60,562 nucleotides of DNA from an uncultured Oscillospiraceae bacterium (GCA_964367945.1 CAYIZZ010000001.1:4222-64783), one strand, 5' to 3'; shown: positions 6,078 through 27,541, counted from the stretch's first letter. A program made the numbers and translations. Notes: generated from the letters alone by a model not told the origin.

Positions 6078-6377
6078 TCAGACATGATAATCAAAACAAA
6101 CACGATTTGTGAATACTTGGCCTACTAAATTTCCAACACGCTTATGCTCGGGATGATCACTGTATATTGCGAGGTCTTCTTCGTTTGCAAAGCTACTTTC
6201 TAATACAACAGCCCTTGTGCTGGTGGGGCAGGGATCGCATACAAGCAAGATATCAACAATTTGTGGTATGAAATTTTTCAAATTTTCAAGTTCTACTTTG
6301 ATTTTTTGAGCACCTGCTTTTTTCTCTTCTTCAGAAAGTCCTTCTTTGAAATCCCATCCTACAATGTGTTTTAGCAT
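6078..6377 (-). CDS. Dabb (stress-responsive alpha/beta barrel) family protein
   Basis: It is 99 aa, starts MLKHIVGWDFKEGLSEEEK, and has a C-terminal HPEHKRV. Size and pattern fit Dabb domain proteins. Confidence 0.75.
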   Translation of the reverse strand: MLKHIVGWDFKEGLSEEEKKAGAQKIKVELENLKNFIPQIVDILLVCDPCPTSTRAVVLESSFANEEDLAIYSDHPEHKRVGNLVGQVFTNRVCFDYHV

Positions 6378-6444
6378 ATGCCGTTCACTCCTTTATTTTT
6401 ATAAATATAAGAACATCAAAATTATGTTTTGTAAAACCTGTATT

Positions 6445-7647
6445 TTAGTTGCGTAGGCATCTGGCGGTAAGTGGTGAAGTGGATAGCAAGTCATATCCTG
6501 TTTTTGTCACCACAATATTTTGTTCGTTGCAGAAAGATCCAAGACCTTGTATTTTGAAGCCCGGTTCTACCGACAAGGTCATTCCGGCTTTCAAGATGTA
6601 ATCGCTTCCGATAGCTAGCTGAGGTTCTTCATGTACATCAAGGCCGATACCATGGCCGGTCCACCCGGCGCTATCATTAACATCAGCGAGGCCATGCTGT
6701 TCCATTACCAAATCACACGCTTTGCTAATTTCGCTTACAGATACGCCTTCACGTATTGACGAAAGTCCTGCTTCCATTGATTCAATGTTTATTTTTTCAT
6801 ATTCTTTTTGTTCTGGAGTCATTTCTATGACCACTGCTTGTCTGATGATATCAGCATAATATCCCTTGTAGCAGGGACCTCCATCTAGGTGTAAAATAGC
6901 ATGAGGCGTGTTTGAGATGATAGTATCGCTTGAGGGACAGTTCACCTGCATCATGCGTTCGAGGCCAAAACGTACTACCATGGACAAGATGTCTTCACAC
7001 TCGTTTTCCATTGCAAAAGCACCCATGACACACATCAGATCGCGCTCAGTGGTTTGTCCTAATACAACGCTGTCGAATGCAGCGTCAAACATACCTTCGG
7101 CAGCCACAACGGCTTTTCTGATATATTCGATTTCTGCATCACTTTTTATTGTGCGCATACTCCAGATTAGTTTTGAAGCATCAGACAAAGTTGCGCCGGC
7201 ATCACACAATCGTTGTTTTAGTGGCAGATAGTGCCCTGTTTGCAGATTGATACGAAAACCGGTGCCAAACTCCATGCCGATACACTTGTTTTGCACACCA
7301 AGCTTTGAAAAAGCATTAAATATAGCTTCTTCATATGTTTTAGGCGTACCTGGCATACCATAGGTGAACATATCGCTTTCTTCCACCCAGGTGGTGGCTC
7401 GCAAAGGACCAAGTGAACTTTTAGAACTTACAGTGGCTATTTTGCCATCGCAAGTGATTATCAAGACACCGGGTGTGGAGTATCCGCTGCTCCATACAAC
7501 CGATTGTAGTCCGGTAAAATAACGAAGGTTTTCTGCCGCTGTTAAGAATAAAGCATCAAAACCATTTTTTTCCATTAGTGTTAACAGTTTGTCAAGGCGT
7601 GCTTTATATTCATTGAGTGGAAAGTCAAGTGAAGCTGTTAATCGCAT
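6445..7647 (-). CDS. M24-family metallohydrolase (creatinase/prolidase fold), copy 1
   Basis: The pita-bread metal ligand pattern is present: HLDGGPCYKGYYADIIR, GHGIGLDVHEEP, SVEPG, NEQNIVVTKTGY. The N-terminal domain is creatinase/prolidase-like. Confidence 0.85.
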   Translation of the reverse strand: MRLTASLDFPLNEYKARLDKLLTLMEKNGFDALFLTAAENLRYFTGLQSVVWSSGYSTPGVLIITCDGKIATVSSKSSLGPLRATTWVEESDMFTYGMPGTPKTYEEAIFNAFSKLGVQNKCIGMEFGTGFRINLQTGHYLPLKQRLCDAGATLSDASKLIWSMRTIKSDAEIEYIRKAVVAAEGMFDAAFDSVVLGQTTERDLMCVMGAFAMENECEDILSMVVRFGLERMMQVNCPSSDTIISNTPHAILHLDGGPCYKGYYADIIRQAVVIEMTPEQKEYEKINIESMEAGLSSIREGVSVSEISKACDLVMEQHGLADVNDSAGWTGHGIGLDVHEEPQLAIGSDYILKAGMTLSVEPGFKIQGLGSFCNEQNIVVTKTGYDLLSTSPLTARCLRN

Positions 7648-7671
7648 GTTTTGAAGTATCCTTTCGGTGAA

Positions 7672-8874
7672 TTATAAAATAGTTATATCCGGCAAAAAGT
7701 CTGAAATCAGCTCATAGCCTGTTTTAGTCACCACGATATTTTCCTCGTGTGTAAAATGACCCAGAATATCATCGCCAATGGTAGGTTCTATGGCTAAAGT
7801 ATTTCCTTCTTGCAATATAATGTCGCAATCGGATGAAATGGTGGGTGGCTCGTGAATTTCAAGACCGATACCATGGCCGCTCCATCCTTTGGTGAGGTTA
7901 TTGTCGGCATAGCCACTTTTTTCCACAAAACGGTCTTGCATTTCCATTAGTTGAGAAACACTTACGCCGGGTTTGATGTTTTCAAGAGTATAATAAAGGG
8001 TTTCCTTGGCCATTTTATAAAAGTCTTCCTGACGAGGAGACAGCCCACCAACCACTGCCATTCGGATGGTATCAGAATAATACCCCTTAAAAATTGGGCC
8101 ACCATCAAACAATAGAATTTCACCTTTTGTATCGGTTATAATCTTATCAGAAGGCGGACAGTTTCCGGCATTATATCTGCCTTGTCCAAAGCAAACGATC
8201 ATGGGTTCCTGACGTTCTGCGCCTTGCCTGTATGCTTCGGCACAATAAACGGCATTAAGAGATTTTTCGGTGGTTTCGCCGAGTTTTATGCACGAGAGAG
8301 CTTTTTGATATGCTAATTTACTTATCATTGCACACTTTTTAAGCGCAGCTATTTCATTTTTGGATTTTACCGAGCGAATAGACCAAATGTTAGAGGTGAA
8401 ATCCACCATTGTAGTATCTTGTATGCCATTCATAACGGCTTGATATGTGTCTTGGTTAATATGAAGGCGCATGGTGGTACCAAGCTCCATGCCAAGGCGG
8501 CCACTTTTTGCGCCGAATTCTGTCAATGTTTGTATCAGTGCGTCTGTATGTGATGCAGGCCTTGCATTATCGGGAGTGCTTTTTCCGTAATACAACAGCT
8601 CATTTTCTGAAAGGCAAGAGGTGTATTTCATGGTTTCGTATGCGCTTCGTGAGCCAATAAGCCTTTTTTGGCCGTCGCTTTTCACTATCAGAGTTCCTGG
8701 TGTGGCTATTTTGCTTACCCATACTACCGATTGAAACCCACAAAAGTATCTTATGTTATATGGTGTGGTAAACATCACGACATCTACGCCGCATTTTTGC
8801 ATTTCTTTTTGTAAATGTTCGTGTCTACGTATATATTCTTCTGTTGGAAATTCCAACATGGGTGTTTGTCTCAT
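7672..8874 (-). CDS. M24-family metallohydrolase (creatinase/prolidase fold), copy 2, a tandem paralog
   Basis: It reads LFDGGPIFKGYYSDTIR, GHGIGLEIHEPP, AIEPT, HEENIVVTKTGY. I prefer the ATG at 8874 (AAAGGGG upstream) over the TTG at 8895 used by the ORF track. Confidence 0.8.
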   Translation of the reverse strand: MRQTPMLEFPTEEYIRRHEHLQKEMQKCGVDVVMFTTPYNIRYFCGFQSVVWVSKIATPGTLIVKSDGQKRLIGSRSAYETMKYTSCLSENELLYYGKSTPDNARPASHTDALIQTLTEFGAKSGRLGMELGTTMRLHINQDTYQAVMNGIQDTTMVDFTSNIWSIRSVKSKNEIAALKKCAMISKLAYQKALSCIKLGETTEKSLNAVYCAEAYRQGAERQEPMIVCFGQGRYNAGNCPPSDKIITDTKGEILLFDGGPIFKGYYSDTIRMAVVGGLSPRQEDFYKMAKETLYYTLENIKPGVSVSQLMEMQDRFVEKSGYADNNLTKGWSGHGIGLEIHEPPTISSDCDIILQEGNTLAIEPTIGDDILGHFTHEENIVVTKTGYELISDFLPDITIL

Positions 8875-8924
8875 GGTGAAAAATGCCCCTTTCAAAATAT
8901 AGCTATTTATATTGTATAGTCTTG

Positions 8925-8953
8925 AGTGTACTATGCAGTGATATTGTTGTCAA
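8925..8953 (-). promoter_or_regulatory. Candidate sigma-A promoter for the M24 operon
   Basis: The minus strand reads TTGACA, a 17-nt spacer, then TACACT. Confidence 0.4.
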
Positions 8954-9005
8954 TGAAAATTCATAATGAGTGTAGTACAAATATGCTAGCTAAAGAAACA
9001 AAGTA

Positions 9006-9034
9006 TTGACACAAAAGACAAAAATTGTGATAAT
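9006..9034 (+). promoter_or_regulatory. Candidate sigma-A promoter for the small Cys-rich ORF
   Basis: TTGACA (9006-9011), an exact 17-nt spacer, then GATAAT (9029-9034). Confidence 0.5.
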
Positions 9035-9091: not shown

Positions 9092-9241
9092 ATGATTAAT
9101 GAAAATTGCGTATGTGAAAATGTTACATGTCCAAGGCACGGCAATTGTGTTGAATGCCGTGCATTTCATGGATCTAGCAAAGAGTACCCAAAAACATCAT
9201 GTCAGAGGTTGAAAGAAGAACAGCAAGCCGAAAAAAGCTAA
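9092..9241 (+). CDS. Small cysteine-rich protein (49 aa) that is not in the supplied ORF track
   Basis: AAGGAGG (9078-9084) lies 7 nt before the ATG. The translation is MINENCVCENVTCPRHGNCVECRAFHGSSKEYPKTSCQRLKEEQQAEKS, with 6 Cys and 2 His. It is bracketed by a promoter-like site and a terminator. Confidence 0.7.
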   Translation: MINENCVCENVTCPRHGNCVECRAFHGSSKEYPKTSCQRLKEEQQAEKS

Positions 9242-9320: not shown

Positions 9321-10502
9321 TTAGCTGATATTTGAATAGACTTTAATAATATCAGATTTTTCAAGAACACGAACAGTGCCAAGGGTGCGCTTGCCAAAAA
9401 ATGTGCTTTTTTCTGCCATATCTTCAATTTCCTCGGAGGTTGGACGGCGACTCAAAAGCTGGCTGTAGTTTATGGGTGAGCCAATGCTACTGAAAAATTC
9501 TTCCATAGCAGCTATACCTGCCATACCGTCAGAAAGTTCATTTCCGCTGTTTACAATACCCATAACACGATGAGCAAACCTTGCAAAACGATGAGGATTG
9601 GATTCGATGGCATATCGTGCCCAAGTGGCCCATACGGTAGAAAGACCGGCGCCATGTGCCACATCGAACATACCACTTAGCTCATGTTCCATTTGATGTG
9701 TAGACCAGTCACCGCCACCGCTACCACATCCGGTAAGGCTGTTGTGGGCAAGGCTGCCGGCCCACATCACACTTTCACGAGCAGGCATGTTTTGAGGGTC
9801 TTTAGATAAAATACGTGCGCTGTCCATCATGGATAAAAGTAAACCTTCGGCGATGCGGTCGGTGATATCCATATCTTCCATTGGGTGAAAATAACGTTCC
9901 ATGGTGTGCATCATGATATCCACAATACCGTTTACGGTTTCGCTGGTAGGTAAGCTCAAGGTCAGCTCGGGATTCATCAAAGTGAATTTGGCAAGGCACA
10001 GCTCTGAAGTGAAGCCACGCTTAAGGTTTCCGTTTTCGTTTGTGATAACAAGTCCGTTGCTCATCTCACTGCCGGCTGCAGGAAGGGTAAGAATACTGCC
10101 TACAGGTGTTGCGTTTTCAGGTACAGCAGTTCTTTCAAAGAAGTCCCAAACATTGCCATTGTAGCAAAGGCCAAGCGCAATGCATTTTGCCGAGTCTATC
10201 ACAGATCCGCCGCCGACTGCTAAAATAAAGTCCACGCCTTCTTTACGACAAAGCTCGATGCCTTCTTGAGCTTTGGAAAGCCTAGGATTTGGTACAGCTC
10301 CACCCAGTAGGGTATATCCAATGCCTTCAGCCTGGATATTATCGGTAACAGTTTTTAAAAAGCCTGATTTCACAAGGCGTTCAGAACCGTAATGTACTAA
10401 AACTTTTGTAGCACCGAAAGCTTTTAGCTGTTTTCCGGCTTGCAATTCGGCACCCTTTTCAAAAATCACTTTCGTAGGCGTGTAGTAAACAAACTCACTC
10501 AT
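9321..10502 (-). CDS. Iron-containing (group III) alcohol dehydrogenase, YqhD/butanol-dehydrogenase type, copy 1
   Basis: It has GGGSVIDSAK and the metal-binding His cluster (HTMERYFHP, HELSGMFDVAHGAG). SD GAGGAG precedes the ATG. Confidence 0.9.
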   Translation of the reverse strand: MSEFVYYTPTKVIFEKGAELQAGKQLKAFGATKVLVHYGSERLVKSGFLKTVTDNIQAEGIGYTLLGGAVPNPRLSKAQEGIELCRKEGVDFILAVGGGSVIDSAKCIALGLCYNGNVWDFFERTAVPENATPVGSILTLPAAGSEMSNGLVITNENGNLKRGFTSELCLAKFTLMNPELTLSLPTSETVNGIVDIMMHTMERYFHPMEDMDITDRIAEGLLLSMMDSARILSKDPQNMPARESVMWAGSLAHNSLTGCGSGGGDWSTHQMEHELSGMFDVAHGAGLSTVWATWARYAIESNPHRFARFAHRVMGIVNSGNELSDGMAGIAAMEEFFSSIGSPINYSQLLSRRPTSEEIEDMAEKSTFFGKRTLGTVRVLEKSDIIKVYSNIS

Positions 10503-10711: not shown

Positions 10712-11896
10712 TTATACGGGTATATTAGATAAAATTGTAGCGATATCGTTTTTTTCAAGTACACGAGCAGTGCCAAGGGTGCGCTTGCCAAAGAATGTGG
10801 CTTTTTCTGCCATTTCATTTACTTCTTCGGCGGATACACCGTGACCTAAAAGCTGGCTGTAGCTTATGGGAGAGCCTATGCTGTTGAAGAAATTTTCCAT
10901 AGCATCAATACCGGCCATGCCGTCAGAAAGCTCATCTCCGCTATCTGCGATGCCCATTACATGATGAGCAAATTTTGCAAAACGATGGGGGATAGAGTTA
11001 ATAGCATAGCGTGCCCAAGTAGCCCAAACAGTGGAAAGGCCGGCGCCATGGGATACATCAAACATACCGCTCAGTTCATGCTCAATGTTATGTGTGGCCC
11101 AGTCACCACCACCACTGCCACAGCCGGTAAGGTTGTTGTGGGCAAGGCTTCCGGCCCACATAACACTCTCGCGAGCAGCCATGTTTTGAGGATCTTTGTG
11201 TAAAATGCGTGCATTATCCATCATGGATAAAAGCAAACCTTCGGCGATACGGTCGGTGATATCCATATCTTTCAGTGGATGGAAATAACGCTCCATTGTA
11301 TGCATCATGATATCCACAATGCCGTTTATGGTTTCGTTAGCGGGCAGAGTAAGTGTTAAATCAGGATTCATTAGAGTGAATTTAGCAATACAAAACTCTG
11401 AGATGCAGCCGCGTTTAAGGTTTCCGTCTTCGTTTGTGATAACAAAGCTGTCGCTCATTTCGCTACCGGCCGCAGGTAAGGTGAGGATGCTAGCTACGGG
11501 AATTCCGCCTTCAGCCGTAGCAGTTTTTTCAAAGAAGTTCCAAACATCGCCATCATAGCAAAGGCCAAGTGCAATGCACTTTGATGAGTCTATTACAGAA
11601 CCGCCACCAACAGCTAAAATGAAGTCCACGCCTTCTTTGCGGCAAAGATCGATGCCTTCTTGAGCTTTTGAAAGTCTGGGGTTTGGAACTACGCCACCAA
11701 GCAAAACACAGTCAATGCCTTCAGCTTGGATAGTATCGGTAACAGTTTTTATAAATCCGGATTTCACTAAACGATCAGAACCGTAATGAACTAAAACTTT
11801 TGTAGCACCGAAAGCTTTTAGCTGTTTTCCGGCTTGTAGCTCGGCACCTTGTTCAAAAATAACTTTAGTCGGTGCATAGTAAACAAATTCACTCAT
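10712..11896 (-). CDS. Iron-containing alcohol dehydrogenase, YqhD/butanol-dehydrogenase type, copy 2
   Basis: It shows the same motifs as copy 1 and is collinear over its full length. I prefer the ATG at 11896, 8 nt after AAGGAG. The ORF track starts one codon earlier at a GTG. Confidence 0.9.
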   Translation of the reverse strand: MSEFVYYAPTKVIFEQGAELQAGKQLKAFGATKVLVHYGSDRLVKSGFIKTVTDTIQAEGIDCVLLGGVVPNPRLSKAQEGIDLCRKEGVDFILAVGGGSVIDSSKCIALGLCYDGDVWNFFEKTATAEGGIPVASILTLPAAGSEMSDSFVITNEDGNLKRGCISEFCIAKFTLMNPDLTLTLPANETINGIVDIMMHTMERYFHPLKDMDITDRIAEGLLLSMMDNARILHKDPQNMAARESVMWAGSLAHNNLTGCGSGGGDWATHNIEHELSGMFDVSHGAGLSTVWATWARYAINSIPHRFAKFAHHVMGIADSGDELSDGMAGIDAMENFFNSIGSPISYSQLLGHGVSAEEVNEMAEKATFFGKRTLGTARVLEKNDIATILSNIPV

Positions 11897-11953
11897 CACA
11901 TATTCTCCTTAAGTTTTTAATAATGTGGTTAATAATTTGTGCAACTAGTTCAT

Positions 11954-11982: not shown

Positions 11983-12044
11983 TATAATTATAATATTATT
12001 ATTTTTAAATATAATACTGAAAAGATGATTTATTTACCAAATAG

Positions 12045-12103: not shown

Positions 12104-13285
12104 TTATTCTATGTTGGATAAAATTGTGGCAATGTCATTCTTTTCAAGCACACGTGCCGAACCAATTGTACGTGTGCCGAAATTTGTACATTTTTCAGCC
12201 ATCTCGTCAATTTCGTCAGATGTGACCTCACGACCTAAAAGCTCGGTATAGCTTGTAGGTGATCCGATGCTATTGAAGAAATCTTCCATTTCATCGATAC
12301 CGGCAAGTCCATCAGCTATCTGATCGCCGCTATCGACCACACCCATCACACGATGTGCAAACTTTGCAAACCTGTCTGGAATGCAGGGCAGGGCATACCG
12401 TGCCCAAGATGCCCAAACAGTGGAAAGACCAGCGCCATGTGCCACATCAAACATACCGCTAAGCTCGTGCTCGATATTGTGTGTAGACCAATCACCGCCA
12501 CCACTGCCACATCCGGTGAGCCCGTTGTGTGCAAGGCTTCCGGCCCACATAATGCTTTCACGTGCAGCTATATTTTTTGGATCGTTTTGCAATATGCGTG
12601 CGGTTTCCATGACAGAAATCAAAAGACCTTCTGCAATGCGGTCGGTGATATCTATCTCTTCCATTGGATGGAAATATCTTTCCATGGTGTGCATTAAAAT
12701 ATCCACGGCACCGTTTACGGTTTCGCTGGTGGGTAAAGTTAATGTTAGCTCGGCGTTTAGTAATGCAAACTTTGCTGCACAAAAATCTGCGCCGAGATCT
12801 CGCTTTAGGCCACCTTCTTCTTTTGTGATAACCATACCGGAGCTCATTTCACTGCCGGCAGCAGGTATGGTAAGGATACATCCCATAGGCATAGCGTCTT
12901 TAGGCTCACCTTTTCTTTCGAAAAAGTCCCAAACATCACCGTTGTAGCACAGGCCTACTGCAATAGCCTTTGCAGAGTCGATGACCGACCCACCACCCAC
13001 AGCCAAGATGAAATCCACACCTTCTTTGCGGGAAATGTCGATACCTTCATATACTTTAGAAAGTCTCGGATTTGGAACCACGCCGCCTAATAATGTAAAA
13101 CCGATGCCCTCAGCCGCAATTGCATCAGTAACGATTTTCATTAAGCCGGATTTTATAACCCTATCAGAACCGTAATGAACTAAAACCTTTGTAGCACCAA
13201 AAGATTTTAGCTGCCTTCCTACCTCAAACTCCGCATTGGTATTGAAAATCACTCTTGTGGGAGTGTAGTACACAAATTCACTCAT
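12104..13285 (-). CDS. Iron-containing alcohol dehydrogenase, YqhD/butanol-dehydrogenase type, copy 3
   Basis: It shows the same motifs (GGGSVIDSAK, HTMERYFHP, HELSGMFDVAHGAG). SD GGAGG precedes the ATG. Confidence 0.9.
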   Translation of the reverse strand: MSEFVYYTPTRVIFNTNAEFEVGRQLKSFGATKVLVHYGSDRVIKSGLMKIVTDAIAAEGIGFTLLGGVVPNPRLSKVYEGIDISRKEGVDFILAVGGGSVIDSAKAIAVGLCYNGDVWDFFERKGEPKDAMPMGCILTIPAAGSEMSSGMVITKEEGGLKRDLGADFCAAKFALLNAELTLTLPTSETVNGAVDILMHTMERYFHPMEEIDITDRIAEGLLISVMETARILQNDPKNIAARESIMWAGSLAHNGLTGCGSGGGDWSTHNIEHELSGMFDVAHGAGLSTVWASWARYALPCIPDRFAKFAHRVMGVVDSGDQIADGLAGIDEMEDFFNSIGSPTSYTELLGREVTSDEIDEMAEKCTNFGTRTIGSARVLEKNDIATILSNIE

Positions 13286-13364: not shown

Positions 13365-13595
13365 TATGACATATTAACGAAGAAAATATGCAAAAAATGG
13401 ATTGGATGTGATATTTCACGATAAAGATAGTGAATATAATCTCTAAATAGTCATAATCAACATAAGATATATTTCAAAATAACGTTAAAACGATGAATAG
13501 CAACTTGCACAAAGTAATTTGGTGAAAAATTATTTGTTAAATAAAAAGTATAAACAAGTATAATTCACGTAATATTAAGAATTGAAATTAAAACG

Positions 13596-17626: not shown

Positions 17627-17638
17627 GAGGAAGCACCG

Positions 17639-18475: not shown

Positions 18476-18489
18476 GGGGGGCAGGGAAG

Positions 18490-19479
18490 ATGAGTGAAGT
18501 ATTACTGAGCGTTAAAAATTTAAAAACATATTTTTACACCGAAGAAGGGGTAATGCCTTCTGTAGATGGTGTAGATTTTGACCTACATGCAGGCGAAACA
18601 CTGGCTATTGTGGGCGAGTCCGGATGTGGTAAAAGTGTTACCAGCCTTTCCATCATGGGTCTTGTGCAGTGTCCTCCGGGTAAAATTGTTGACGGTGAGA
18701 TATTGTATCAAGGCGAAGATTTGCTGAAGAAAAACAAAAAAGAAATGCGTGCCATTCGTGGCAACGATATTTCAATGATTTTCCAAGAGCCTATGACCAG
18801 CTTGAACCCTGTGTTTACTGTGGGTAAGCAGATAATGGAGTCTTTCATTATTCATCAAAAGCTTAATAAAAAAGAAGCTAAAGAACGCAGCATAGATATG
18901 ATTCGGATGGTGGGGATCCCTTCACCTGAAAAAGTGGTGGATCAATATCCACATGAGCTTTCGGGTGGTATGCGTCAGCGTATCATGATAGCAATGGCGC
19001 TGGCATGTAGTCCTAAAATTCTGATAGCGGATGAGCCAACCACTGCTCTTGATGTTACTATTCAAGCGCAGATAATGAATCTTTTGCAGGAACTAAAGCA
19101 GAAAATAGGTGCCATAATCATCATTACTCATGATCTTGGTGTGGTGGCGCAGATTGCAAAGAATGCTATGGTTATGTATGCAGGGCAGGTGGTAGAATAC
19201 ACCTCGGTACAAAATATATATAAAAAGCCTTTACATCCGTATACTGTGGGTCTTTTGAAAAGTGTACCTAAGCTGAATGAAGATGTAGATAAGCTGTACA
19301 ACATCCAAGGAATGGTTCCAAGCCCTAACATGTATCCTAAAGGCTGCAGATTCTGCCCAAGGTGTGATGATGCAAAAGCTATATGCGAAAACAACCCGCC
19401 ACCACTGGTAGAAGTAAACGATGCTCACAAGGTGCGTTGCTGGAAATACGATGCAGAGGAGGGGAAGAATTTTGGATAA
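18490..19479 (+). CDS. ABC transporter ATP-binding protein (DppD/OppD type)
   Basis: It has Walker A GESGCGKS, signature LSGGMRQR and Walker [13 protein letters not shown], plus the C-terminal oligopeptide-type extension. Confidence 0.95.
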
Positions 19480-20452
19480 GCCTCTGTTGTCTTTAAATGA
19501 TTTAAAAGTATATTACGAAGTAAAGTCTAAAAATAGGCTGGGCACGGCGGTGTCCTATTCAAAAGCGGTAGACGGTATCACACTTGAAATACAAAAAGGT
19601 GAAGCTTTTGGTATTGTGGGTGAGTCCGGTTGTGGAAAAACCACTACAGGAAAGGCTATTGTACGCCTAAACGAGCCTACCGATGGCAATATCGAGTTTG
19701 AAGGTAAAGATATAAAAAGTTATGCCCGTCTTGAGCTGGCAAAACATATACAAATCATTTTCCAAGATCCATACTCTTCCCTAGATCCGCGCATGACGGT
19801 GGGTAAATGTATTGAAGAACCACTATTGGTGCACGGAATGAAGGACAAAAAAGAGAGATATGATCGTGCAGTTCAGCTTTTGGCAGATGTGGGATTGCGA
19901 GAGGATCAATACTCACGATTTCCACACGAGTTTTCCGGTGGTCAACGTCAACGTATCGGTGTGGCACGTGCTATTGCACTGAACCCTGATTTGGTGGTGT
20001 GTGACGAGCCGGTATCAGCGCTAGACGTGTCTATTCAGGCGCAAATACTGAATTTGATGCAGGATTTACAAAAAAAATATAACCTTACTTACATATTTAT
20101 CTCGCACAACCTTAGTGTGGTAAAACACTTGTGCGATAGAATTGCCGTTATGTATTTGGGGCATATTGTAGAGCTGTCCAATAAAAAAGATTTATTTGAC
20201 AACCCTAAACATCCGTATACTGAGGCGTTGTTATCGGCCATACCTATTGCCGATCCTGACATAAAAAGTATGACGGTAGAGTTGAGCGGTGATGTTCCTA
20301 GTCCTTTGAATCCACCGCCCGGATGTTGTTTTCATCAGCGGTGTCCGCATAGTTTTGAGCGCTGCAAAAAAGAACTACCACAACTTCATGAAATATCTCC
20401 GGGGCATACTGTGGCTTGCCATTTATGCGATCCCGCAGGTAAAGAAGGCTGA
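19451..20452 (+). CDS. ABC transporter ATP-binding protein (DppF/OppF type)
   Basis: It has Walker A GESGCGKT, signature FSGGQRQR and Walker [13 protein letters not shown]. The start is uncertain. The options are the ATG at 19451 or the TTG at 19472, which lies 8 nt after GGAGGGG. The track start at 19421 is unlikely. Confidence 0.85.
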
Positions 20453-20507
20453 AAAAGACATGTGTTGAAAGCATGTTGAAAATAAAACTTAATTTGGAGG
20501 AATAGCT

Positions 20508-21311
20508 ATGATTAAAGCTAATTTGGTACAAGAACTTGAAGTAAGCAGTTGGGAGCGCGTATCTTATGAGCCCAGCGAAGAGCTTAAAGCAGTAGAAGAA
20601 AAAATTGCACAAGATCCTGAAAACACAGCTCTGTGGGTGGAAAAAGGTCTGCTTTTTGCCGCAAGTTCTTTATATCGTGAAGCAGAAGAATGCTATGCAC
20701 ATGCTATTGCTATTGATCCTTTTGAAGGCATTTTGTATCGTCATCGTGCCCATCGTTTCCTTTCACAATGGCGCTTTGAAGACGCTTGCGCAGACTTCAC
20801 CATCGCTTCTCGCTTGATTCCGGAAAACTGGGATGTTTGGTATCATCTGGGATTGTCATATTTCTTGCTGGGTGACTATGTGAAAGCTTCAAAAGCATAC
20901 CAGCACTGCCTTGATATCTCTACAAAAGAGGATGAATTGATTGCTGTTTGCGATTGGTTTTATATGACAAAACTGCGTTTGGGTGATCGTGAAGGCGCAG
21001 AAAAACTGCTGCATAATATCCAAGAAGATTTTGATCCGGGCGATAATGGTGCATACTTCCGTCGTCTTTTGATGTATAAAGGTATTGTGAAACCGGAAGA
21101 AGTGCTACCGGAAGATCTTAGCACATTAGACGCACTTGATCTTGTCACCATGGGATTTGGCTTGTCAAACTACTATTTCTACAATGGCGAAGAAGCAAAA
21201 TCAAACGAAGTTATCGATATGATTTTGAAATCCGGCGACGAGCAAAACTGCTATGTAGCGTTTGGTTATTTGGCTGCAAAAGTAGATAAGAAAAACCGTA
21301 GCGCAAAATAA
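20508..21311 (+). CDS. TPR-like repeat protein of unknown function, paralog A
   Basis: It is an all-helical repeat protein (ALWVEKGLLFAASSLYREAEECYAHAIAIDP.., ENWDVWYHLGLSYFLLGDYVKASKAYQHC). It has no signal peptide. SD GGAGG is present. Confidence 0.7.
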   Translation: MIKANLVQELEVSSWERVSYEPSEELKAVEEKIAQDPENTALWVEKGLLFAASSLYREAEECYAHAIAIDPFEGILYRHRAHRFLSQWRFEDACADFTIASRLIPENWDVWYHLGLSYFLLGDYVKASKAYQHCLDISTKEDELIAVCDWFYMTKLRLGDREGAEKLLHNIQEDFDPGDNGAYFRRLLMYKGIVKPEEVLPEDLSTLDALDLVTMGFGLSNYYFYNGEEAKSNEVIDMILKSGDEQNCYVAFGYLAAKVDKKNRSAK

Positions 21312-21367
21312 GAAAATATAAGTAAGTGAATTGATACGACTCTAGCTTGCTTTATTATTTCGGCTAG

Positions 21368-21459
21368 CCCCCACATGTGAATTTAAACACTGCATATTAC
21401 AGTAAGCTTTGCGGCAAGTAATGTGGCCTTGGAATTTACAAGTGGGTGGCTACATTTTT
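21368..21459 (+). promoter_or_regulatory. Nested extended stem-loop followed by T5, lying between the two TPR-like paralogs (terminator/attenuator or processing site)
   Basis: The outer arms are cccccacatgtgaattt (21368-21384) and ggaatttacaagtgggtgg (21431-21449), imperfect. The inner arms are catattac (21393-21400) and gtaatgtg (21418-21425). TTTTT follows at 21455-21459. Confidence 0.4.
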
Positions 21460-21523
21460 AGCGTATAAAAATGAAAGATTTACCCAAAGTATTAAACGAT
21501 TACTCAAAAGGGAGGAAATATAC

Positions 21524-22321
21524 GTGAAAGCTACAAAAGAATATCAAATAGCTAACCAAACTCGTACACAGCTTGAACTGCCTGAAAAGGTGCAAAAAAT
21601 TGATGAATCCCTACAAAAAGATCCTAATGATGCAAAACTTTGGATGGAAAGAGGTCTTGCTTTATCGGAAGTAAGCCTGATGCGTGAAGCTGTAGAAGCT
21701 TATTCGCGCGCCATTGCTCTTGAGCCGTTTTGCGGAATACTATATCGTCACAGAGGCCACAGACACCTAAGCTGCTATGAGTTTGTAGAGGCTTCGGCAG
21801 ATTTTGAGATGGCAGCTCGCTTGATTCCGGAAAACTGGGATGTTTGGTATCACCTAGCTCTTTCATATTACCTGCAAGGTCTTTATGAAAAAGCATCTGC
21901 TGCATATGCACGCTGCAGAGCGCTAACAAAAGAAGATGATATAGACTCTTTGTGTGCTGTTAGTGACTGGTGGTGGCGTACATTGATGCGTCTTGGTGAA
22001 AAAGAAAAAGCCAAAGAGATGATAGCTACATTGCCAACAGACTTTGACCCGGATGTGGAAATATCAGGATATTCATGCATGTGTGCACTTTATCAAGGTC
22101 GCTTAAAGGCTGAAGATATGCTGCCTAATGGCGTGGATGCACCGGAAATCAAGCCTATTTCCATGGGATATGGTTTATCAAACTATTATTATCTAAACGG
22201 TGATATGGAAAAATCAAACAGCTTGGTAAAAGAAATAATTAGTGTTGGCGAGGCTGACTGGTGGTGCGCATTTGGATATTTGGCCGCAGGGGTAGACCAT
22301 CAAAAACGTAATCTAGATTAA
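21524..22321 (+). CDS. TPR-like repeat protein of unknown function, paralog B
   Basis: It is collinear with paralog A (KLWMERGLALSEVSLMREAVEAYSRAIALEP.., ENWDVWYHLALSYYLQGLYEKASAAYARC). I prefer the GTG at 21524, which lies 7 nt after AGGGAGG and gives an N-terminus matching paralog A. The track start at 21446 lacks an SD. Confidence 0.7.
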   Translation: MKATKEYQIANQTRTQLELPEKVQKIDESLQKDPNDAKLWMERGLALSEVSLMREAVEAYSRAIALEPFCGILYRHRGHRHLSCYEFVEASADFEMAARLIPENWDVWYHLALSYYLQGLYEKASAAYARCRALTKEDDIDSLCAVSDWWWRTLMRLGEKEKAKEMIATLPTDFDPDVEISGYSCMCALYQGRLKAEDMLPNGVDAPEIKPISMGYGLSNYYYLNGDMEKSNSLVKEIISVGEADWWCAFGYLAAGVDHQKRNLD

Positions 22322-22338
22322 AAAAAGGAGAAATTACC

Positions 22339-22704
22339 ATGTCAATTCAACGATATGATGTGAATAAGGGTAGTAGCCGCCTTGTGGTACACAATGGTGT
22401 GGCATATTTCACGGGACATGCTCGCCCAAACACTCCCACATTAAGAGAGCAAACAGCTGGCCTTTGCAAACGCTATGATGAGTTGTTTGAACAGTTTGGC
22501 CTGAAAAAAGAAAACATCATTATGATGAATGCATATTTGAAAGATATTAATGAAATAGCAGAGTTTGAAGAAGAGTGGAACAAATGGGTAGGGGAAGAGC
22601 ATGCACCGGCCGGAGTGGCTGTGGAAGCATCCCCGGTGCAGAACTCTGCACTTGGCGATAACATTCGCTTAGAGCTGGCCCTTATTGTGGCCACAGAAGA
22701 GTAA
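22339..22704 (+). CDS. RidA/YjgF/UK114-fold protein, paralog 1 (PAG in place of the catalytic PAR)
   Basis: It aligns by eye to RidA: LVVHNGVAYFTGH.., LREQT.., ..NAYLKDI..F.., APAGVAVEA.., LELALIVA. Confidence 0.75.
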   Translation: MSIQRYDVNKGSSRLVVHNGVAYFTGHARPNTPTLREQTAGLCKRYDELFEQFGLKKENIIMMNAYLKDINEIAEFEEEWNKWVGEEHAPAGVAVEASPVQNSALGDNIRLELALIVATEE

Positions 22705-22721
22705 AGAAAGGAGCATTTACT

Positions 22722-23084
22722 ATGGCTATTGAAAGATATGATATTAGTGGTGGTGGAAGCCGCCTTGTGATTCATAACGATGTGGCATATTTTACAGGTC
22801 ACGTCAGCCCGTTCACCAGTACACTGCGTGAGCAGACCATGGGTTTGTGCAAGCGATATGATGAGCTATTACCGCAGTTTGGCCTTAAAAAGGAAAATAT
22901 CCTTATGGCTAATATTTACCTGCAAAACATCGATGACTTGAAAGAGTTTGATGAAGTTTTTCACGAGTGGGTAGGCGCAGAAAATCCTCCGGCAGGAGTG
23001 GCTGTGCAAGCTCCACCTGAGTTTAAAACTGAGGATGGTAAGGACATCTTAGTAGAGCTGGCCTTGATTGTAGCACGTAAATAA
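22722..23084 (+). CDS. RidA/YjgF/UK114-fold protein, paralog 2
   Basis: It has the same architecture (LVIHNDVAYFTGH, LREQT, PPAGVAVQAPP, VELALIVA). SD AAGGAG is present. Confidence 0.75.
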   Translation: MAIERYDISGGGSRLVIHNDVAYFTGHVSPFTSTLREQTMGLCKRYDELLPQFGLKKENILMANIYLQNIDDLKEFDEVFHEWVGAENPPAGVAVQAPPEFKTEDGKDILVELALIVARK

Positions 23085-23112
23085 TTAAGGGGCAAAAGAA
23101 AGGAAGTTTAGA

Positions 23113-23466
23113 ATGGATATCAAACGATATGATAAACGTCCCGGTTGTAGCCGTCTTGTGATTCACAACAATGTGGCATATTTTACCGGTCACAGTGCCC
23201 GCGAGGAATTTATCACCATGAAAGAGCAAACTCGCGCAGTGTGCGAAAGATATGACGAATTATTTGCACAGTTTGGCCTGAAAAAAGAAAATATTATTAT
23301 GATGAACGCATACTTTAAAGATATTAACATGGTAAATGACTTTAAAGAAGTGTATAATGAATGGTTGAACGGTGAAGTAGCACCGGCAGGTGTGACAGTG
23401 CAAGCACCACCTATCGGAGAAAATAATTTACTTGAGTTGCAGTTTATTGTGGCAACAGATGACTAA
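23113..23466 (+). CDS. RidA/YjgF/UK114-fold protein, paralog 3
   Basis: It has the same architecture (LVIHNNVAYFTGH, MKEQT, APAGVTVQAPP, LELQFIVA). SD AAAGGAAG is present. Confidence 0.75.
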   Translation: MDIKRYDKRPGCSRLVIHNNVAYFTGHSAREEFITMKEQTRAVCERYDELFAQFGLKKENIIMMNAYFKDINMVNDFKEVYNEWLNGEVAPAGVTVQAPPIGENNLLELQFIVATDD

Positions 23467-23502
23467 AATAGTCCGTAAAAAATAAAAGCATTAATATAGA
23501 TA

Positions 23503-23548
23503 GCGGAATATTTGAGGTTGTATTTCAGGTATTTCGCTGTTTTATTTT
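23503..23548 (+). terminator. Rho-independent terminator after the Rid triplet
   Basis: A 13-bp stem with G-U pairs joins gcggaatatttga to tcaggtatttcgc. It is followed by tgttttatttt. Confidence 0.65.
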
Positions 23549-23571
23549 AAAAATAGCTTTAAATAGGAGGG

Positions 23572-24432
23572 ATGGGAATTTATTATTTAGTGGCATTAGC
23601 AGTAGGTGTTTTAACTTCTTTAATGATAACCGCAAATGGTGGCCTGACAGAGTTTGTAGGTCTTTACAGCTCAAGCATTATTGTTCATGTAGTGGGTCTT
23701 TTGATATTATCAGTTGTTATGATAATAAAAAAAGTGAACCCATTTAAGAATATCCAGCCGTGGTATTTATATCTTGGTGGGGTTTTAGGTGTGCTGGTAA
23801 CTGTTGGAACCAGCTATGCTTTCGAGCCTTTGGGTGTATCGGCAACATTGGCTTTAGGCCTTTTAGGTCAAAGTACTATGGGGCTACTTATAGATCAGTT
23901 TGGGATCTTTGGTATGCAGACATATAAGTTTAAAAAAATGCGACTGATACCATTTATCGTTATGATTTTGGGTGCAGTTTTTATGATAAGACAACTGAAT
24001 ATTGTTGCTATGATTTTATCGTTTTTGATTGGCTCAGCCCTTGTTGTTCAGCGTGTTATCAATGGCAGGCTGGCAAAAAATACAAACCTGATTATCAGTA
24101 CATCTTGCACATATATAGTTGGACTTTTAGGCTCTATCGTGGTGTTTTTTATTTTGGGTCGTAGCGAGCCGGTATGGACAGAACTTACAATGCCTACAAA
24201 TGTACTCTTGTATCTAGGTGGACTTATCGGAATATTTACAGTACTCTTGTCAACAGTGTGTGTCTCAAAAATGTCATCTTACGGGTTATCTATCCTGATT
24301 TTTATAGGGCAGGTTTTTTCAGGAGTGATTATAGATAGCGTTTTAATAGGCGAAGTTGCAATGATAAATATAATTGGTGGCATTATTGTTACAGTTGGCC
24401 TTTGTATTGACGCACTTGTAAATAAAAAATAA
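23572..24432 (+). CDS. DMT-superfamily membrane protein (duplicated YdcZ/DUF606-like, about 10 TM)
   Basis: It is highly hydrophobic and internally duplicated (ANGGLTEFVG.. and NGRLAKNT.. halves). SD AGGAGGG is present. Confidence 0.6.
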   Translation: MGIYYLVALAVGVLTSLMITANGGLTEFVGLYSSSIIVHVVGLLILSVVMIIKKVNPFKNIQPWYLYLGGVLGVLVTVGTSYAFEPLGVSATLALGLLGQSTMGLLIDQFGIFGMQTYKFKKMRLIPFIVMILGAVFMIRQLNIVAMILSFLIGSALVVQRVINGRLAKNTNLIISTSCTYIVGLLGSIVVFFILGRSEPVWTELTMPTNVLLYLGGLIGIFTVLLSTVCVSKMSSYGLSILIFIGQVFSGVIIDSVLIGEVAMINIIGGIIVTVGLCIDALVNKK

Positions 24433-24657
24433 GTGACATAAAGCAGATGAATTTAGTTTGTGTTGTAAAATTGCCGCAAATAGGTGCAAAAGAGTTATGC
24501 ACATACTAAATATAAAATATAGCATGTGTAAACATTTTCAGATTGTAAAACACATGCATATTCCAAGTGATAGTATGCTATATTAATTGAAGTTTAATAT
24601 GCTTTATTGTAAAATATTTACTATGATAAAAATTTTAAAAAGGATTAGTGGTAGAAT

Positions 24658-25758
24658 ATGAAAAAGACTTGTTGGGACAAACTTGGAGAGATATCAATGC
24701 TTGGTTTTGGGGCTATGCGCTTGCCACATAATGGTGATGTGATAGACCAAGAACAAACAAACGAAATGGTGGCATATGCCCTAAAAAATGGGATAAATTA
24801 TTTTGATACAGCGCATGTTTATAACGATGGTGACAGTGAGCGTGCACTGGCGAAAGCTCTTGAAAATGTAGATAGAAGTAGCTACTATTTAGCTGATAAA
24901 ATGCCACTTTGGTCTGCCGAAAACCCGGAATACCTTGAGAAGACATTTGCCGAGAGTCTGGAGCGCTTAAACACTGATTATATTGATTTTTATCTTGTGC
25001 ACTCTGTTGCAGACAATTTGATGGACAAGATAAAAAATCTTAAGGTGGTAGATTTTATTGCACAAAAGAAACGTGAAGGAAAGATAAAGCATATAGGCTT
25101 TTCAATTCATGACAAAATAGATTGCTTGCTAGAAATGCTGGAGCTGTATGACTGGGAGTTTGCTCAAATTCAGTACAACTATCTGGATATTGATGGAGAG
25201 CCGGGTGATGCCGGATATAAAGAACTACTAAAAAGAGAAATTCCTATACTTATCATGGAGCCACTGAAAGGTGGAATTTTAACTGATTTGCCGGAAAGTA
25301 TTACACAACCATACAATGAGTTTTCAGGTAGTAATGCTTCATTCTCGTTCCGTTGGCTGTGTGAGAAAGAGGGTATTGCGTGTATTTTGTCCGGCATGAG
25401 TAACATGGAGCAGTTAAAGGAAAACATAGATATATTTAATAATATGAAGCAGCTTTCAGCACAAGAGCATGAAGCTATAGTAAAAGTGAGTGAAAACCTG
25501 AAAAGAAATCAAAAAGTACCATGTACAGGTTGTGCTTATTGCATGCCATGTCCTGTGGGTATAAACATACCTGAATCATTCAAGGCGTGGAACACAATAA
25601 GCTTACAGAAACCTAGCGATAACTGGGTTTCCGGCGCATATATTGATTATGATAAGGTAGCTTCATGTGTAGAGTGTGGCGCATGTGTTTCACATTGTCC
25701 GCAACATATCGAGATTCCACAAATGTTGCAAAAATTGGTACAAGAAAATAATGCATAA
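24658..25758 (+). CDS. Aldo/keto reductase with a C-terminal 4Fe-4S ferredoxin-type domain
   Basis: The N-terminus is AKR-like (LGFGAMRLP.., INYFDTAHVYNDGDSERALAKAL). Two Cys clusters follow: CTGCAYCMPCP and CVECGACVSHCP. Confidence 0.85.
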   Translation: MKKTCWDKLGEISMLGFGAMRLPHNGDVIDQEQTNEMVAYALKNGINYFDTAHVYNDGDSERALAKALENVDRSSYYLADKMPLWSAENPEYLEKTFAESLERLNTDYIDFYLVHSVADNLMDKIKNLKVVDFIAQKKREGKIKHIGFSIHDKIDCLLEMLELYDWEFAQIQYNYLDIDGEPGDAGYKELLKREIPILIMEPLKGGILTDLPESITQPYNEFSGSNASFSFRWLCEKEGIACILSGMSNMEQLKENIDIFNNMKQLSAQEHEAIVKVSENLKRNQKVPCTGCAYCMPCPVGINIPESFKAWNTISLQKPSDNWVSGAYIDYDKVASCVECGACVSHCPQHIEIPQMLQKLVQENNA

Positions 25759-25798
25759 TTAAATGTAGTAGTTATATTTATGTGAGGGGAGTGCGGCA

Positions 25799-27541
25799 AT
25801 GAAAAAGGTGATGAACAAAACGGAAAATGTGGTGCGTGAGATGTGTAGCGGCATTGTGCTGGCGCATAGCGAGCTAAGCTTGGACGCAAAGCATATGGTG
25901 ATTGCAAAAAAAGAGCTGAACCACAAAAAAGTTAGCCTTATCAGCGGCGGAGGTAGCGGACACGAGCCTGCACATGCAGGGTTTGTGGGTGAAGGGCTTT
26001 TAGATGCAGCTGTTTGCGGTGATGTGTTTGCCTCGCCCTCACAAATTCAAGTGTATAAGGCTATTACTGAAACAAAAAGCGAAAAAGGCACCTTGCTTAT
26101 TATTAAAAACTATAGTGGCGATATCATGAACTTCCAAAATGCCGCAGCCATGGCAAAGGAAGATGGTATTGAGGTAGATACCGTCAAGGTGGATGATGAT
26201 ATTGCGGTGCAAGATAGCCTTTATACTGTGGGTAGGCGTGGTGTTGCAGGCACTGTGTTGGTTCACAAGCTAGCAGGTGCTGCAGCGCAGCAAGGGTGTA
26301 GCTTGTCAGAGGTAAAGAAGGTGGCTGAAAAAACTATTGCCAATGTAAAAAGCATAGGTTTTGCACTGACATCATGTACTGTGCCAGCAAAAGGTGCGCC
26401 TACATTTTCTCTTGATGAAGATGAAATGGAGTACGGTGTTGGTATCCATGGTGAGCCCGGCATAAAAAGAGAAAAAATGGAAGATGCTCATACATTGGCA
26501 AAACGCATGACAGATGCGCTGTGTGCTGAGCTTTGTCTTGAAAAAGGCAGCGAGATAGCAGTATTGGTGAATGGCTTTGGCGCAACACCTTTGATGGAAT
26601 TATATCTGATGAATAAAGATATAACACAGCAGTTGGATGCGCGAGGCATTACAATACACCGCTGTTTTGTGGGCAATTATATGACTAGTATCGATATGGC
26701 GGGTGCGTCTCTTTCTTTTTTGAAGCTGGATGAAGAGCTGAAAGGATATTTGAATGCACCGTGTAAAGCGCCGGCGTTACAGATAGATGGTCCGGTATCG
26801 GCGGTACAGTATGAAGACTATTTTGCCAAAGATGTAACCGAAGATGATGTATCGTATGAAGTTCAAACACCGAAAACAGTACTTGAAAATGAAGTGGAGC
26901 TTTCACATATCATGTATATGGTGGATGTGATGAGTGCTTCTGCCATACGCAACGAAGTACCGTTTTGTGAGATGGACGCTCATGCAGGTGATGGTGATTT
27001 TGGCATGAGTATAGCCAAAGGTTTTCGCAGGCTGAAAGTTGAATGGAGTTCTATTGTAGGCGTGGAAAATCTTGACATAAGCGGGTTTTTAGATGCGTGC
27101 TCTTTGGTGATAATGGAGCATTGTGGCGGAGCATCCGGACCTATTTGGGGTGCGGCTTTCCGTGCAGCGGCCAAAAACACAGCTGGCAAAAACACGCTTT
27201 CAGCCGCAGACTTTGCAGACATGCTTCAAGCGGCGGTGAAAGGTATACAAACCATAGGTGAGAGATCGTTTGGTAGAGGTGCAATGGTGGGTGACAAGAC
27301 TTTGATTGATGCCATAGTACCTTGTGCCGATGCATGGAGTGAAAACGCAAAAAGCGAAATGTCTTTGAAAGAGTGCTTTGCAGAAGGTGCTAAAGCTGCT
27401 GTGTGTGGAGCTGAAAAAACAAAAGAGATTGTGGCACGTATGGGTAGGGCAGGCGCTTTGGGTGAGCGTAGCTTGGGCTATCCTGACGCTGGGGCATATG
27501 GGTTGGGCGTTATATTTACAGATATTGCCAACTCCATGTAG
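25799..27541 (+). CDS. Dihydroxyacetone (glycerone) kinase, fused DhaK-DhaL (ATP-dependent Dak type)
   Basis: The Dak1 motif is SGGGSGHEPAHAGFVGEGLLDAAVCGDVFASPS. The Dak2 motif is DAHAGDGDFG. The single polypeptide is 580 aa. Confidence 0.9.
   Translation: MKKVMNKTENVVREMCSGIVLAHSELSLDAKHMVIAKKELNHKKVSLISGGGSGHEPAHAGFVGEGLLDAAVCGDVFASPSQIQVYKAITETKSEKGTLLIIKNYSGDIMNFQNAAAMAKEDGIEVDTVKVDDDIAVQDSLYTVGRRGVAGTVLVHKLAGAAAQQGCSLSEVKKVAEKTIANVKSIGFALTSCTVPAKGAPTFSLDEDEMEYGVGIHGEPGIKREKMEDAHTLAKRMTDALCAELCLEKGSEIAVLVNGFGATPLMELYLMNKDITQQLDARGITIHRCFVGNYMTSIDMAGASLSFLKLDEELKGYLNAPCKAPALQIDGPVSAVQYEDYFAKDVTEDDVSYEVQTPKTVLENEVELSHIMYMVDVMSASAIRNEVPFCEMDAHAGDGDFGMSIAKGFRRLKVEWSSIVGVENLDISGFLDACSLVIMEHCGGASGPIWGAAFRAAAKNTAGKNTLSAADFADMLQAAVKGIQTIGERSFGRGAMVGDKTLIDAIVPCADAWSENAKSEMSLKECFAEGAKAAVCGAEKTKEIVARMGRAGALGERSLGYPDAGAYGLGVIFTDIANSM

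Follow-up and report, generated by a model that had tools for sequence, protein, structure and literature searches.

Interleaving of a conserved peptide-type import module with a resident carbonyl reductase set in an uncultured Oscillospiraceae bacterium

Importers of the Dpp, Opp and Gsi type, such as those encoded by gsiABCD-iaaA of Escherichia coli and the dpp operon of Bacillus subtilis, are built from five genes and have a peptidase gene beside the transporter. Here, we describe a locus of that general design at positions 6078 to 27541 of a 60,562-nucleotide stretch of DNA (the window) from an uncultured Oscillospiraceae bacterium. The locus encodes a complete family-5 (peptide-type) ATP-binding cassette (ABC) importer, with one substrate-binding protein (SBP) of the SBP_bac_5 family, two BPD_transp_1 permeases and two ATPases with an oligo_HPY domain, and the solved SBPs nearest to its own include binders of glutathione and dipeptides. 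In these respects it resembles the Dpp, Opp and Gsi systems. It differs from them in that the importer is always joined by one to four copies of a cytoplasmic tetratricopeptide repeat (TPR)-like protein and often by a presumed trimer of Rid proteins that lack a catalytic arginine, in that control is of the AraC type, and in that the family of the accompanying peptidase changes from lineage to lineage.

The companions of the importer have described relatives of their own. Rid family proteins form trimers, and in RidA an arginine (Arg105 in the usual numbering) binds the carboxylate of the imino acid. NlpI is a periplasmic lipoprotein of E. coli that acts as the TPR adaptor of the hydrolases Prc and MepS, while the Opp-dependent RRNPP-type receptors (Rap, NprR, PlcR, Rgg) are cytoplasmic TPR proteins with genes beside a peptide importer. 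Prolidase and aminopeptidase P of the M24B family (PepQ, PepP) combine the Creatinase_N and Peptidase_M24 domains and carry five metal ligands; creatinase has lost its metal ligands.

We find that the block is a mosaic in which two gene sets are interleaved. The set that contains the importer, module B, represents an operon type that is widely conserved but uncharacterised, and the other, module A, is a resident group of generic carbonyl reductases and a Dha-type kinase with which module B is interleaved in this lineage. It is probable that the two sets are functionally independent and that module B serves peptide-type import and hydrolysis. Operons for peptide-type ABC uptake and hydrolysis are a known kind; the new part is a pair of uncharacterised, tightly linked accessory families.

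Two interleaved gene sets

Genes were called by open reading frame (ORF) listing and Pfam scans and were further scored against NCBIfam models. Every gene listed in an initial annotation of the window was recovered at its coordinates, and the four families it had described as tandem copies, namely M24 hydrolases, iron-containing alcohol dehydrogenases (Fe-ADHs, or ADHs), TPR-like proteins and Rid proteins, are real. Paralogs are 39% identical for M24, 72-82% for ADH, 44% for TPR and 55-63% for Rid. The features of the block are as follows.

6078-6377, minus strand: Dabb protein (Pfam), module A
6445-7647, minus strand: M24a, Creatinase_N and Peptidase_M24 (Pfam), module B
7672-8895, minus strand: M24b, Creatinase_N and Peptidase_M24 (Pfam), module B
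9092-9241, plus strand: Cys-rich ORF of 49 amino acids (ORF listing), module A
9321-10502, minus strand: Fe-ADH1, YqhD/Bdh-like (Pfam), module A
10712-11899, minus strand: Fe-ADH2, YqhD/Bdh-like (Pfam), module A
12104-13285, minus strand: Fe-ADH3, YqhD/Bdh-like (Pfam), module A
13596-14492, minus strand: AraC-family regulator, divergent from the importer operon (Pfam), module B
14769-14832, plus strand: direct repeat, two copies of RAGATGATTTAT, in the AraC/SBP intergenic region
14979-16604, plus strand: SBP_bac_5 protein with a lipoprotein-type N terminus (Pfam), module B
16694-17626, plus strand: ABC permease 1 (Pfam), module B
17639-18475, plus strand: ABC permease 2 (Pfam), module B
18490-19479, plus strand: ABC ATPase 1 with oligo_HPY (Pfam), module B
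19421-20452, plus strand: ABC ATPase 2 with oligo_HPY (Pfam), module B
20508-21311, plus strand: TPR1, TPR-like protein of 267 amino acids (Pfam), module B
21446-22321, plus strand: TPR2, TPR-like protein of 291 amino acids (Pfam), module B
22339-22704, plus strand: Rid1 (Pfam PF01042), module B
22722-23084, plus strand: Rid2 (Pfam PF01042), module B
23113-23466, plus strand: Rid3 (Pfam PF01042), module B
23498-23542, plus strand: terminator-like hairpin and T-run at the end of the SBP-to-Rid3 operon
23572-24432, plus strand: DMT_YdcZ permease (Pfam)
24658-25758, plus strand: Aldo_ket_red protein with a C-terminal 4Fe-4S dicluster domain (AKR-FeS; Pfam), module A
25799-27541, plus strand: fused Dak1-Dak2 (DhaK-DhaL) kinase (DAK; Pfam), module A

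The two sets came apart in a comparison with a sibling contig (L169, assembly GCA_964370165.1), which was located as the carrier of the closest ADH1 homolog (94%) and is about 84% identical to the window in DNA. Two segments of the window are absent from the sibling. Where the window has positions 6411-9034, with M24a and M24b, the sibling has 65 bp, and where the window has positions 13548-24581, with AraC, the five ABC genes, TPR1 and TPR2, Rid1 to Rid3 and the DMT permease, it has 127 bp. The order in the sibling is GGDEF-EAL, Dabb, Cys-rich ORF, ADH, ADH, AKR-FeS, DAK and DUF975, such that Dabb adjoins the Cys-rich ORF with no M24 gene between them, and the genes that flank the set are the same in both contigs. 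Proteins encoded at corresponding positions are 91% (GGDEF-EAL), 77% (Dabb), 93.6% (ADH1 ortholog), 94.7% (ADH3 ortholog), 88% (AKR-FeS), 94% (DAK) and 92% (DUF975/CmpB) identical. ADH2 has no counterpart there and is the sole lineage-specific extra copy. No mobile-element signature is visible at the segment junctions.

The initial annotation had treated the 21 kb as a single unit, and that view did not survive the comparison. Dabb, the Cys-rich ORF, the ADHs, AKR-FeS and DAK persist contiguously in the sibling without the importer, TPR, Rid and M24 genes, and the importer set persists without them in dozens of species, where it is almost never accompanied by ADH, AKR, DMT or Dabb; thus, the 21 kb is not one unit. 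The split agrees with terminator-like hairpins, one after Rid3 and another after Dabb, and with the separate promoter-like sites of the ADH genes, each of which has its own duplicated TTGACT-17-TAAAAT site (also seen in repeat analysis). The case carries a practical caution: close packing of genes around one regulator does not show that they form a single pathway, and here one sibling comparison divided the block.

Module A has the character of a generic set. ADH1 to ADH3 score 227-237 bits against NCBIfam PRK15138 (YqhD), which has a cut-off of 645, and belong only to the broader Fe-ADH family. The best NCBIfam matches of the three ADHs and of the aldo/keto reductase (AKR) are aldehyde and methylglyoxal reductases. 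DAK scores 716 bits against PRK14479 (cut-off 492) and holds Dak1 and Dak2 in one chain, which places it within that family. An exact look-up of the window's ADH1 returned no record, and the neighbors of its closest homologs vary from locus to locus. AKR-FeS was considered as a member of a conserved module and was rejected, as a metagenome scan gave 80 loci at no more than 48% identity, none of them near DAK, TPR, Rid, ADH or DMT. A conserved pairing of ADH with the Cys-rich ORF was likewise rejected; the small ORFs beside ADH homologs in two other loci (L171, L173) are unrelated to it.

The Cys-rich ORF is itself likely a real gene for a small protein. It has the pattern CxCx5CxxHGxCxxC and no Pfam family, it is preceded by a strong, near-consensus promoter-like site at 9006-9034 and an AAGGAGG ribosome-binding site, and 45 of its 49 residues are identical in the sibling, where the surrounding DNA is about 79-84% identical. 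On the outside, the locus is bracketed by genes for a GGDEF-EAL protein (3754-5883) and a GGDEF protein (29967-31604), which occupy the same positions in the sibling. Between the block and the latter, at 27687-29234, lies a gene for a 515-residue protein with DUF975 and ABC_trans_CmpB domains, without an NCBIfam match and 92% identical in the sibling.

Conservation of the importer module

Module B recurs far beyond this genome. A search with TPR1 returned 1,646 relatives, mostly from metagenome-assembled genomes (MAGs) of Clostridia and including a protein in which the TPR-like domain is fused to Rid (P0113). A scan with the TPR alignment over one genome per GTDB species then gave 76 loci, which were compared with the window proteins by tblastn. 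The following counts concern 56 non-Acidobacteriota species representatives with a TPR-like gene and features within 10 kb of that gene. Opp-type (family-5) permeases were found in 44 of the 56, nearly always on the strand of the TPR-like gene, and an SBP in 39. Rid proteins without the arginine accompanied 24, encoded by three genes, joined in a triple-Rid fusion or attached to TPR, and a divergent AraC gene stood at the same position in 16 (the closest of these being 32-43% identical). One or more amide hydrolases of five families were present in 33 (S9 in 15, M24 in 12, M19 in 8, amidohydrolase in 5 and AstE-like in 4). Module A, by comparison, was sparsely represented, with DAK in 3/56, ADH in 2/56, Dabb in 1/56 and AKR-FeS in 0/56. 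The DMT permease, which lies within the 11-kb segment absent from the sibling, was beside the module in no other species (0/56) and is probably a passenger.

Gene order tells the same story. In the neighborhoods of five TPR1 relatives, family-5 ABC genes adjoin one to four TPR-like genes in every case, Rid, M24, S9 or amidohydrolase genes are the usual companions, and a divergent AraC gene is frequent. The closest locus, L013 in a Provencibacterium MAG, encodes a TPR-like protein 81% identical to that of the window and reads AraC, SBP, permease, permease, ATPase, ATPase, TPR, Rid, Rid, Rid, M24b, M24a. A layout of AraC, SBP, two permeases, two ATPases, TPR and Rid and/or M24 is found in Provencibacterium, Oscillospiraceae and the Blautia-like "Ruminococcus sp. 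5_1_39BFAA," as well as in Collinsella, Dielma, Anaerotruncus and Spirochaetales. The trio of TPR-like protein, Rid protein with a PAG motif and family-5 SBP, whose co-occurrence the initial annotation had proposed as a check, is therefore conserved in many Clostridia and beyond, often with AraC and M24. The combination, which the initial annotation had not recognised as any described pathway, matched none here either: full-text literature searches gave no description of it. Module B carries two protein families without a known role, and the identity of its substrate would assign a function to both and to a subclass of Opp-type importers. The module is common in gut Clostridia of humans and animals, among them the Blautia-like Ruminococcus, Faecalibacterium-labelled MAGs and Anaerotruncus, and it is present in Collinsella and Dielma. 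Its carriers in culture include Anaerotruncus colihominis DSM 17241 (L043), Dielma fastidiosa JC13 (L031) and Collinsella provencensis (L024).

The tandem copies within the module are for the most part not recent. The initial annotation had called them amplified, and the term is apt for ADH2 alone. In L010, L013 and L017, the best matches to Rid1, Rid2 and Rid3 are three separate orthologs that follow one another as in the window; M24b and M24a are kept as an ordered pair in L013; and TPR copy numbers of one to four per locus are a trait of the whole family, with a second copy of the TPR2 type conserved in L007, L010, L011 and L014. We conclude that these three paralog sets arose long ago and have kept their positions, and they are probably subunits of hetero-oligomers.

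Some occurrences call for separate mention. Firmicutes-type AraC-ABC-TPR-Rid modules were found in a bin assigned to Barnesiella intestinihominis (L016) and in one assigned to a Methanomethylophilaceae archaeon (L038), with TPR-like proteins 76% and 54% identical, respectively, and these probably reflect contamination in MAG binning rather than the real distribution. In loci of Acidobacteriota/Vicinamibacterales (L065-L087), a TPR-like homolog with 35-38% identity stands without ABC, Rid or M24 neighbors and in many cases lies close to genes for a TonB-dependent receptor and a PEGA-domain protein.

The TPR-like, Rid and M24 proteins

TPR1 has no signal peptide, is predicted to be cytoplasmic and matches Pfam TPR_1 and TPR_2 as a genuine TPR-repeat protein. 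Its AlphaFold2 model is an all-helical TPR solenoid with a confidence score (pLDDT) of 96, and the best non-designed match in a Foldseek search was NlpI, with a TM score of 0.64-0.66 over about 260 residues. A structural match beyond the generic TPR fold was sought with a PDB-sequence profile search and Foldseek, and both gave generic or designed TPRs and NlpI, with no enzyme fold. TPR1 resembles NlpI in fold and size, in its association with hydrolases and in having a PDZ-fused relative (P0177), but the two are only 15-17% identical, and NlpI is a periplasmic lipoprotein, whereas TPR1 is without a signal peptide.

Sequence conservation within the family is strong. Among 146 paralogs and orthologs, P71, Y112, W150, Y183, Y190 and F252 are kept in 145-146, and R78, H79, H82, H113 and D149 are nearly invariant. 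The resulting motifs YRHRxHR, WYHLGL, DWxYMT and AFGYxAA had no counterpart in solved structures, where the PDB-sequence profile search found generic TPR matches only. From the register of the TPR repeats, R78, H79, H82, Y112 and H113 would occupy groove-facing positions on successive first helices. The family is also large: a hidden Markov model search of 1.84 billion representatives gave 1,296 TPR-like proteins at E <= 1e-30, some generic multi-TPR proteins included, and a single cluster (P0102) contains 1,876 member sequences.

Fusions link the domain to Rid and to hydrolases. TPR::Rid proteins include P0113, P0123 and the product of a 388-residue gene in L011, and the second, TPR2-type copy is the one fused to Rid in L007, L011 and L014. 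The full-length TPR-like domain, with its motifs kept, is fused to S9 peptidases three times (P0220, P0253, P0179) and once each to penicillin amidase (P0218), PDZ (P0177) and gamma-glutamyltranspeptidase (P0199, a protein with a signal peptide at its N terminus). In environmental homologs fused to other domains, the TPR domain is preceded by a conserved SLLGKPL motif, and P0121, a protein of 817 residues with three complete TPR-like units, mirrors the multigene sets of the window. A fusion to KduI/IolB (P0098) was considered as a clue to a sugar-acid substrate and rejected; P0058 and P0082 share its first ~250 residues and have different aberrant C termini, and a frameshift or an error of assembly probably accounts for the fusion.

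The Rid proteins have the YjgF/Rid fold (PF01042, E-values of 1e-11 to 1e-14), and their nearest solved relatives, PSPTO_0102 and PA5083, belong to the Rid family. They depart from the RidA/YjgF deaminases at the catalytic arginine, which is glycine in all three within the motif PAGV; the alignment pairs "apaGvavea" in the query with "apaRatvea" in PSPTO_0102. Among 34 members of the subfamily without the arginine, none departs from P90 or A91, and at least 90% have G92. The arginine is missing, and therefore Rid1 to Rid3 should not be called imine deaminases, contrary to the handling of reactive imines that had been ascribed to them. They differ from the deaminases also in organization, as three conserved paralogs, as a fusion to TPR or as a triple fusion, such as the 359-residue protein of L004 (8045-9124) in which three Rid domains are joined. 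A search for Rid relatives, which the word index for short proteins restricted, returned only 47 proteins, and these carried generic Rid or RidA labels and no specific functional name. Because Rid proteins are trimers and the three genes are conserved in position, Rid1 to Rid3 probably form a heterotrimer that associates with the TPR proteins.

M24a and M24b share the domain architecture of PepQ and PepP and, by alignment to the prolidase 3q6d with ligand mapping, all five metal ligands (D255, D266, H332, E361 and E375 in M24a; D264, D275, H341, E370 and E384 in M24b). The retained ligands set them apart from creatinase. Their likeness to prolidase is distant, at 98-101 bits against a PepQ cut-off of 630, and they fall well short of ectoine hydrolase, at 52-89 bits against cut-offs of 575-613 for the DoeA models. 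Scores far below every equivalog cut-off and the conserved pairing of paralogs distinguish them from PepQ and PepP. M24a orthologs adjoin ABC, TPR or Rid genes in L007, L010, L013 and L014, and the pair is probably a heterodimer.

Function, regulation and rival readings

How module B works can be outlined from its parts. On balance, we think that it imports and hydrolyzes a small peptide or peptide-like amide with the aid of an accessory complex of TPR-like proteins and a Rid trimer, under AraC control. The lipoprotein SBP would capture the compound outside the cell for import by the ABC system, and the metal-dependent M24a/M24b pair would cut its amide bond in the cytoplasm. The TPR-like paralogs, with their groove of conserved Arg, His, Tyr and Trp, may bind the imported ligand or a partner hydrolase and would probably assemble on the Rid heterotrimer, which, because it lacks the catalytic arginine, might serve as a scaffold or ligand-binding unit rather than as an imine deaminase. 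AraC would sense the substrate or product and activate the divergent operon. Of what had been proposed for the locus at the outset, peptide-like import followed by M24 hydrolysis is still the best reading, and the conserved core holds as well; ADH, AKR and DAK steps in the same pathway and a Rid-imine step are not supported.

Our leading guess at the substrate is a compound of the Xaa-Pro type. It is suggested by the prolidase architecture of M24, by the Dpp5-like S9 partners elsewhere, by the amidohydrolase partners, for which the best match is Xaa-Pro dipeptidase, and by the wealth of Tyr and Trp among the conserved TPR residues. Across loci the hydrolase neighbors are M24, S9 (Dpp5-like), M19, amidohydrolase and AstE-like proteins. 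Every importer component exceeds its Pfam cut-offs (SBP_bac_5; two BPD_transp_1 with OppC_N or BPD_transp_1_N; two ABC_tran with oligo_HPY). The solved structure nearest to the SBP is 5u4o, which is uncharacterised, with no ligand in the molecule names shown and none found in the full-text searches; HbpA, GsiB and DppA, which bind glutathione or dipeptides, come next. The best NCBIfam matches of the SBP (NikA, GsiB, DppA) are all far below cut-offs.

The regulator has a PF02311 cupin (AraC_binding) together with PF12833 (HTH_18) and PF00165, as expected of the AraC/XylS family. Within the 60-kb window, the 12-mer RAGATGATTTAT has exactly three copies, at 12022-12033, 14769-14780 and 14821-14832. 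The latter two form a direct repeat between AraC and SBP, with starts 52 bp apart, and constitute a candidate AraC operator; the 12-mer was not conserved in promoters of related loci. The remaining copy lies upstream of ADH2, the ADH copy that the sibling lacks, and could reflect either chance or the recruitment of an AraC site to ADH2.

We tentatively entertain a wider proposal, namely that the TPR-like family and the Rid trimer together make up an unrecognised cytoplasmic complex for ligand capture or processing, which serves one class of Opp-type importers and amide hydrolases from gut Clostridia and Coriobacteriia to Spirochaetes. Were that so, the TPR-like domain would be a new portable module of substrate recognition, or even catalysis, in the catabolism of small amides, and the compound catabolised in the gut would possibly be derived from diet or host.

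Several points weigh against our interpretation. The peptide assignment is based on annotation at family level, where the scores come nowhere near any NCBIfam equivalog cut-off, and family-5 SBPs can also carry opines, nickel or sugars. Neither the TPR-like nor the Arg-less Rid family includes a protein of assigned function or with a known ligand, and further fusion partners of the TPR-like domain (SnoaL, PNPOx, Smr, His_Phos_1) are not hydrolases. As to the separation of the two modules, the ADH block is flanked by two separate indels in the sibling, so that the arrangement is not a simple single insertion and its mechanism is not clear; the RAGATGATTTAT copy upstream of ADH2 makes regulatory cross-talk with module A conceivable; and DhaK/DhaL genes stand inside an ABC-TPR operon in three distant species. 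The last two points speak for the pathway envisaged in the initial annotation, in which the whole 21 kb would catabolise an Amadori- or opine-like conjugate by import, M24 hydrolysis, action of Rid, ADH and AKR on carbonyl or imine products and phosphorylation of a ketose or triose by DAK. Indeed, in those species (L069, L080 and L084) split DhaK/DhaL genes and two amidohydrolase genes directly follow ABC, three TPR genes and SBP on the same strand, and the reductase matches of ADH and AKR would suit such products. We nevertheless consider a single pathway unlikely. In the sibling, Dabb, ADH, AKR and DAK adjoin one another and no module B gene accompanies them, of 56 species that bear the module no more than three have any one of AKR, DMT, ADH and DAK nearby, none of the AKR-FeS homologs seen elsewhere has DAK, TPR or Rid beside it, the neighbors of ADH homologs vary, the terminator-like site after Rid3 and the separate ADH promoter-like sites divide the block, and the Rid proteins lack the arginine that imine hydrolysis requires.

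The chemistry of the substrate and the role of the TPR-like proteins could also be read otherwise. If the compound imported and opened were an amide or amidine that is zwitterionic and not a peptide, for instance one similar to ectoine or an N-acyl-diamino-acid, M24 would act like DoeA and the cationic group would be held by the aromatic-rich groove of the TPR protein. The top M24 matches include DoeA, AstE-like proteins whose best match is the deacetylase DoeB co-occur with M24 in L042 and L053, and the TPR protein has invariant Tyr and Trp. The scores, however, are 5 to 10 times below the equivalog cut-offs, the frequent partners are Dpp5-like S9 peptidases, M19 dipeptidases and amidohydrolases like Xaa-Pro dipeptidase, the nearest solved SBPs bind glutathione or dipeptides, and known ectoine uptake relies on other transporter families; an ectoine-like substrate is thus quite improbable. 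We give still less credence to peptide sensing, by which the TPR-like proteins would be RRNPP-type receptors that bind a signal peptide imported by Opp and modulate AraC or other targets. They do lack a signal peptide and lie beside an Opp-type importer and a transcription factor, and their conserved residues fall on predicted helices 74-86, 108-120 and 141-157, with placement in the concave groove suggested by the TPR register. RRNPP receptors, however, have a helix-turn-helix (HTH) or phosphatase effector, and at 267 and 291 residues TPR1 and TPR2 give only TPR-type Pfam matches, and weak, generic TPR matches in NCBIfam. Moreover, they occur as one to four paralogs per operon in a catabolic context, their consistent neighbors are peptidases and amidases, and where relatives bear an N-terminal signal peptide (P0199), they are joined to hydrolases. 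Import and hydrolysis of a peptide-like amide remains our preferred account of module B.

Finally, Rfam gave no riboswitch or leader RNA in the locus, and the window matches only transfer-messenger RNA (tmRNA) and signal recognition particle (SRP) RNA, both elsewhere. The tmRNA gene (38879-39246) follows smpB (38384-38836) and precedes an island of about 31% GC at 40-44 kb of the window. The island encodes a large serine recombinase at 42812-44374 and is probably a mobile element integrated at ssrA.

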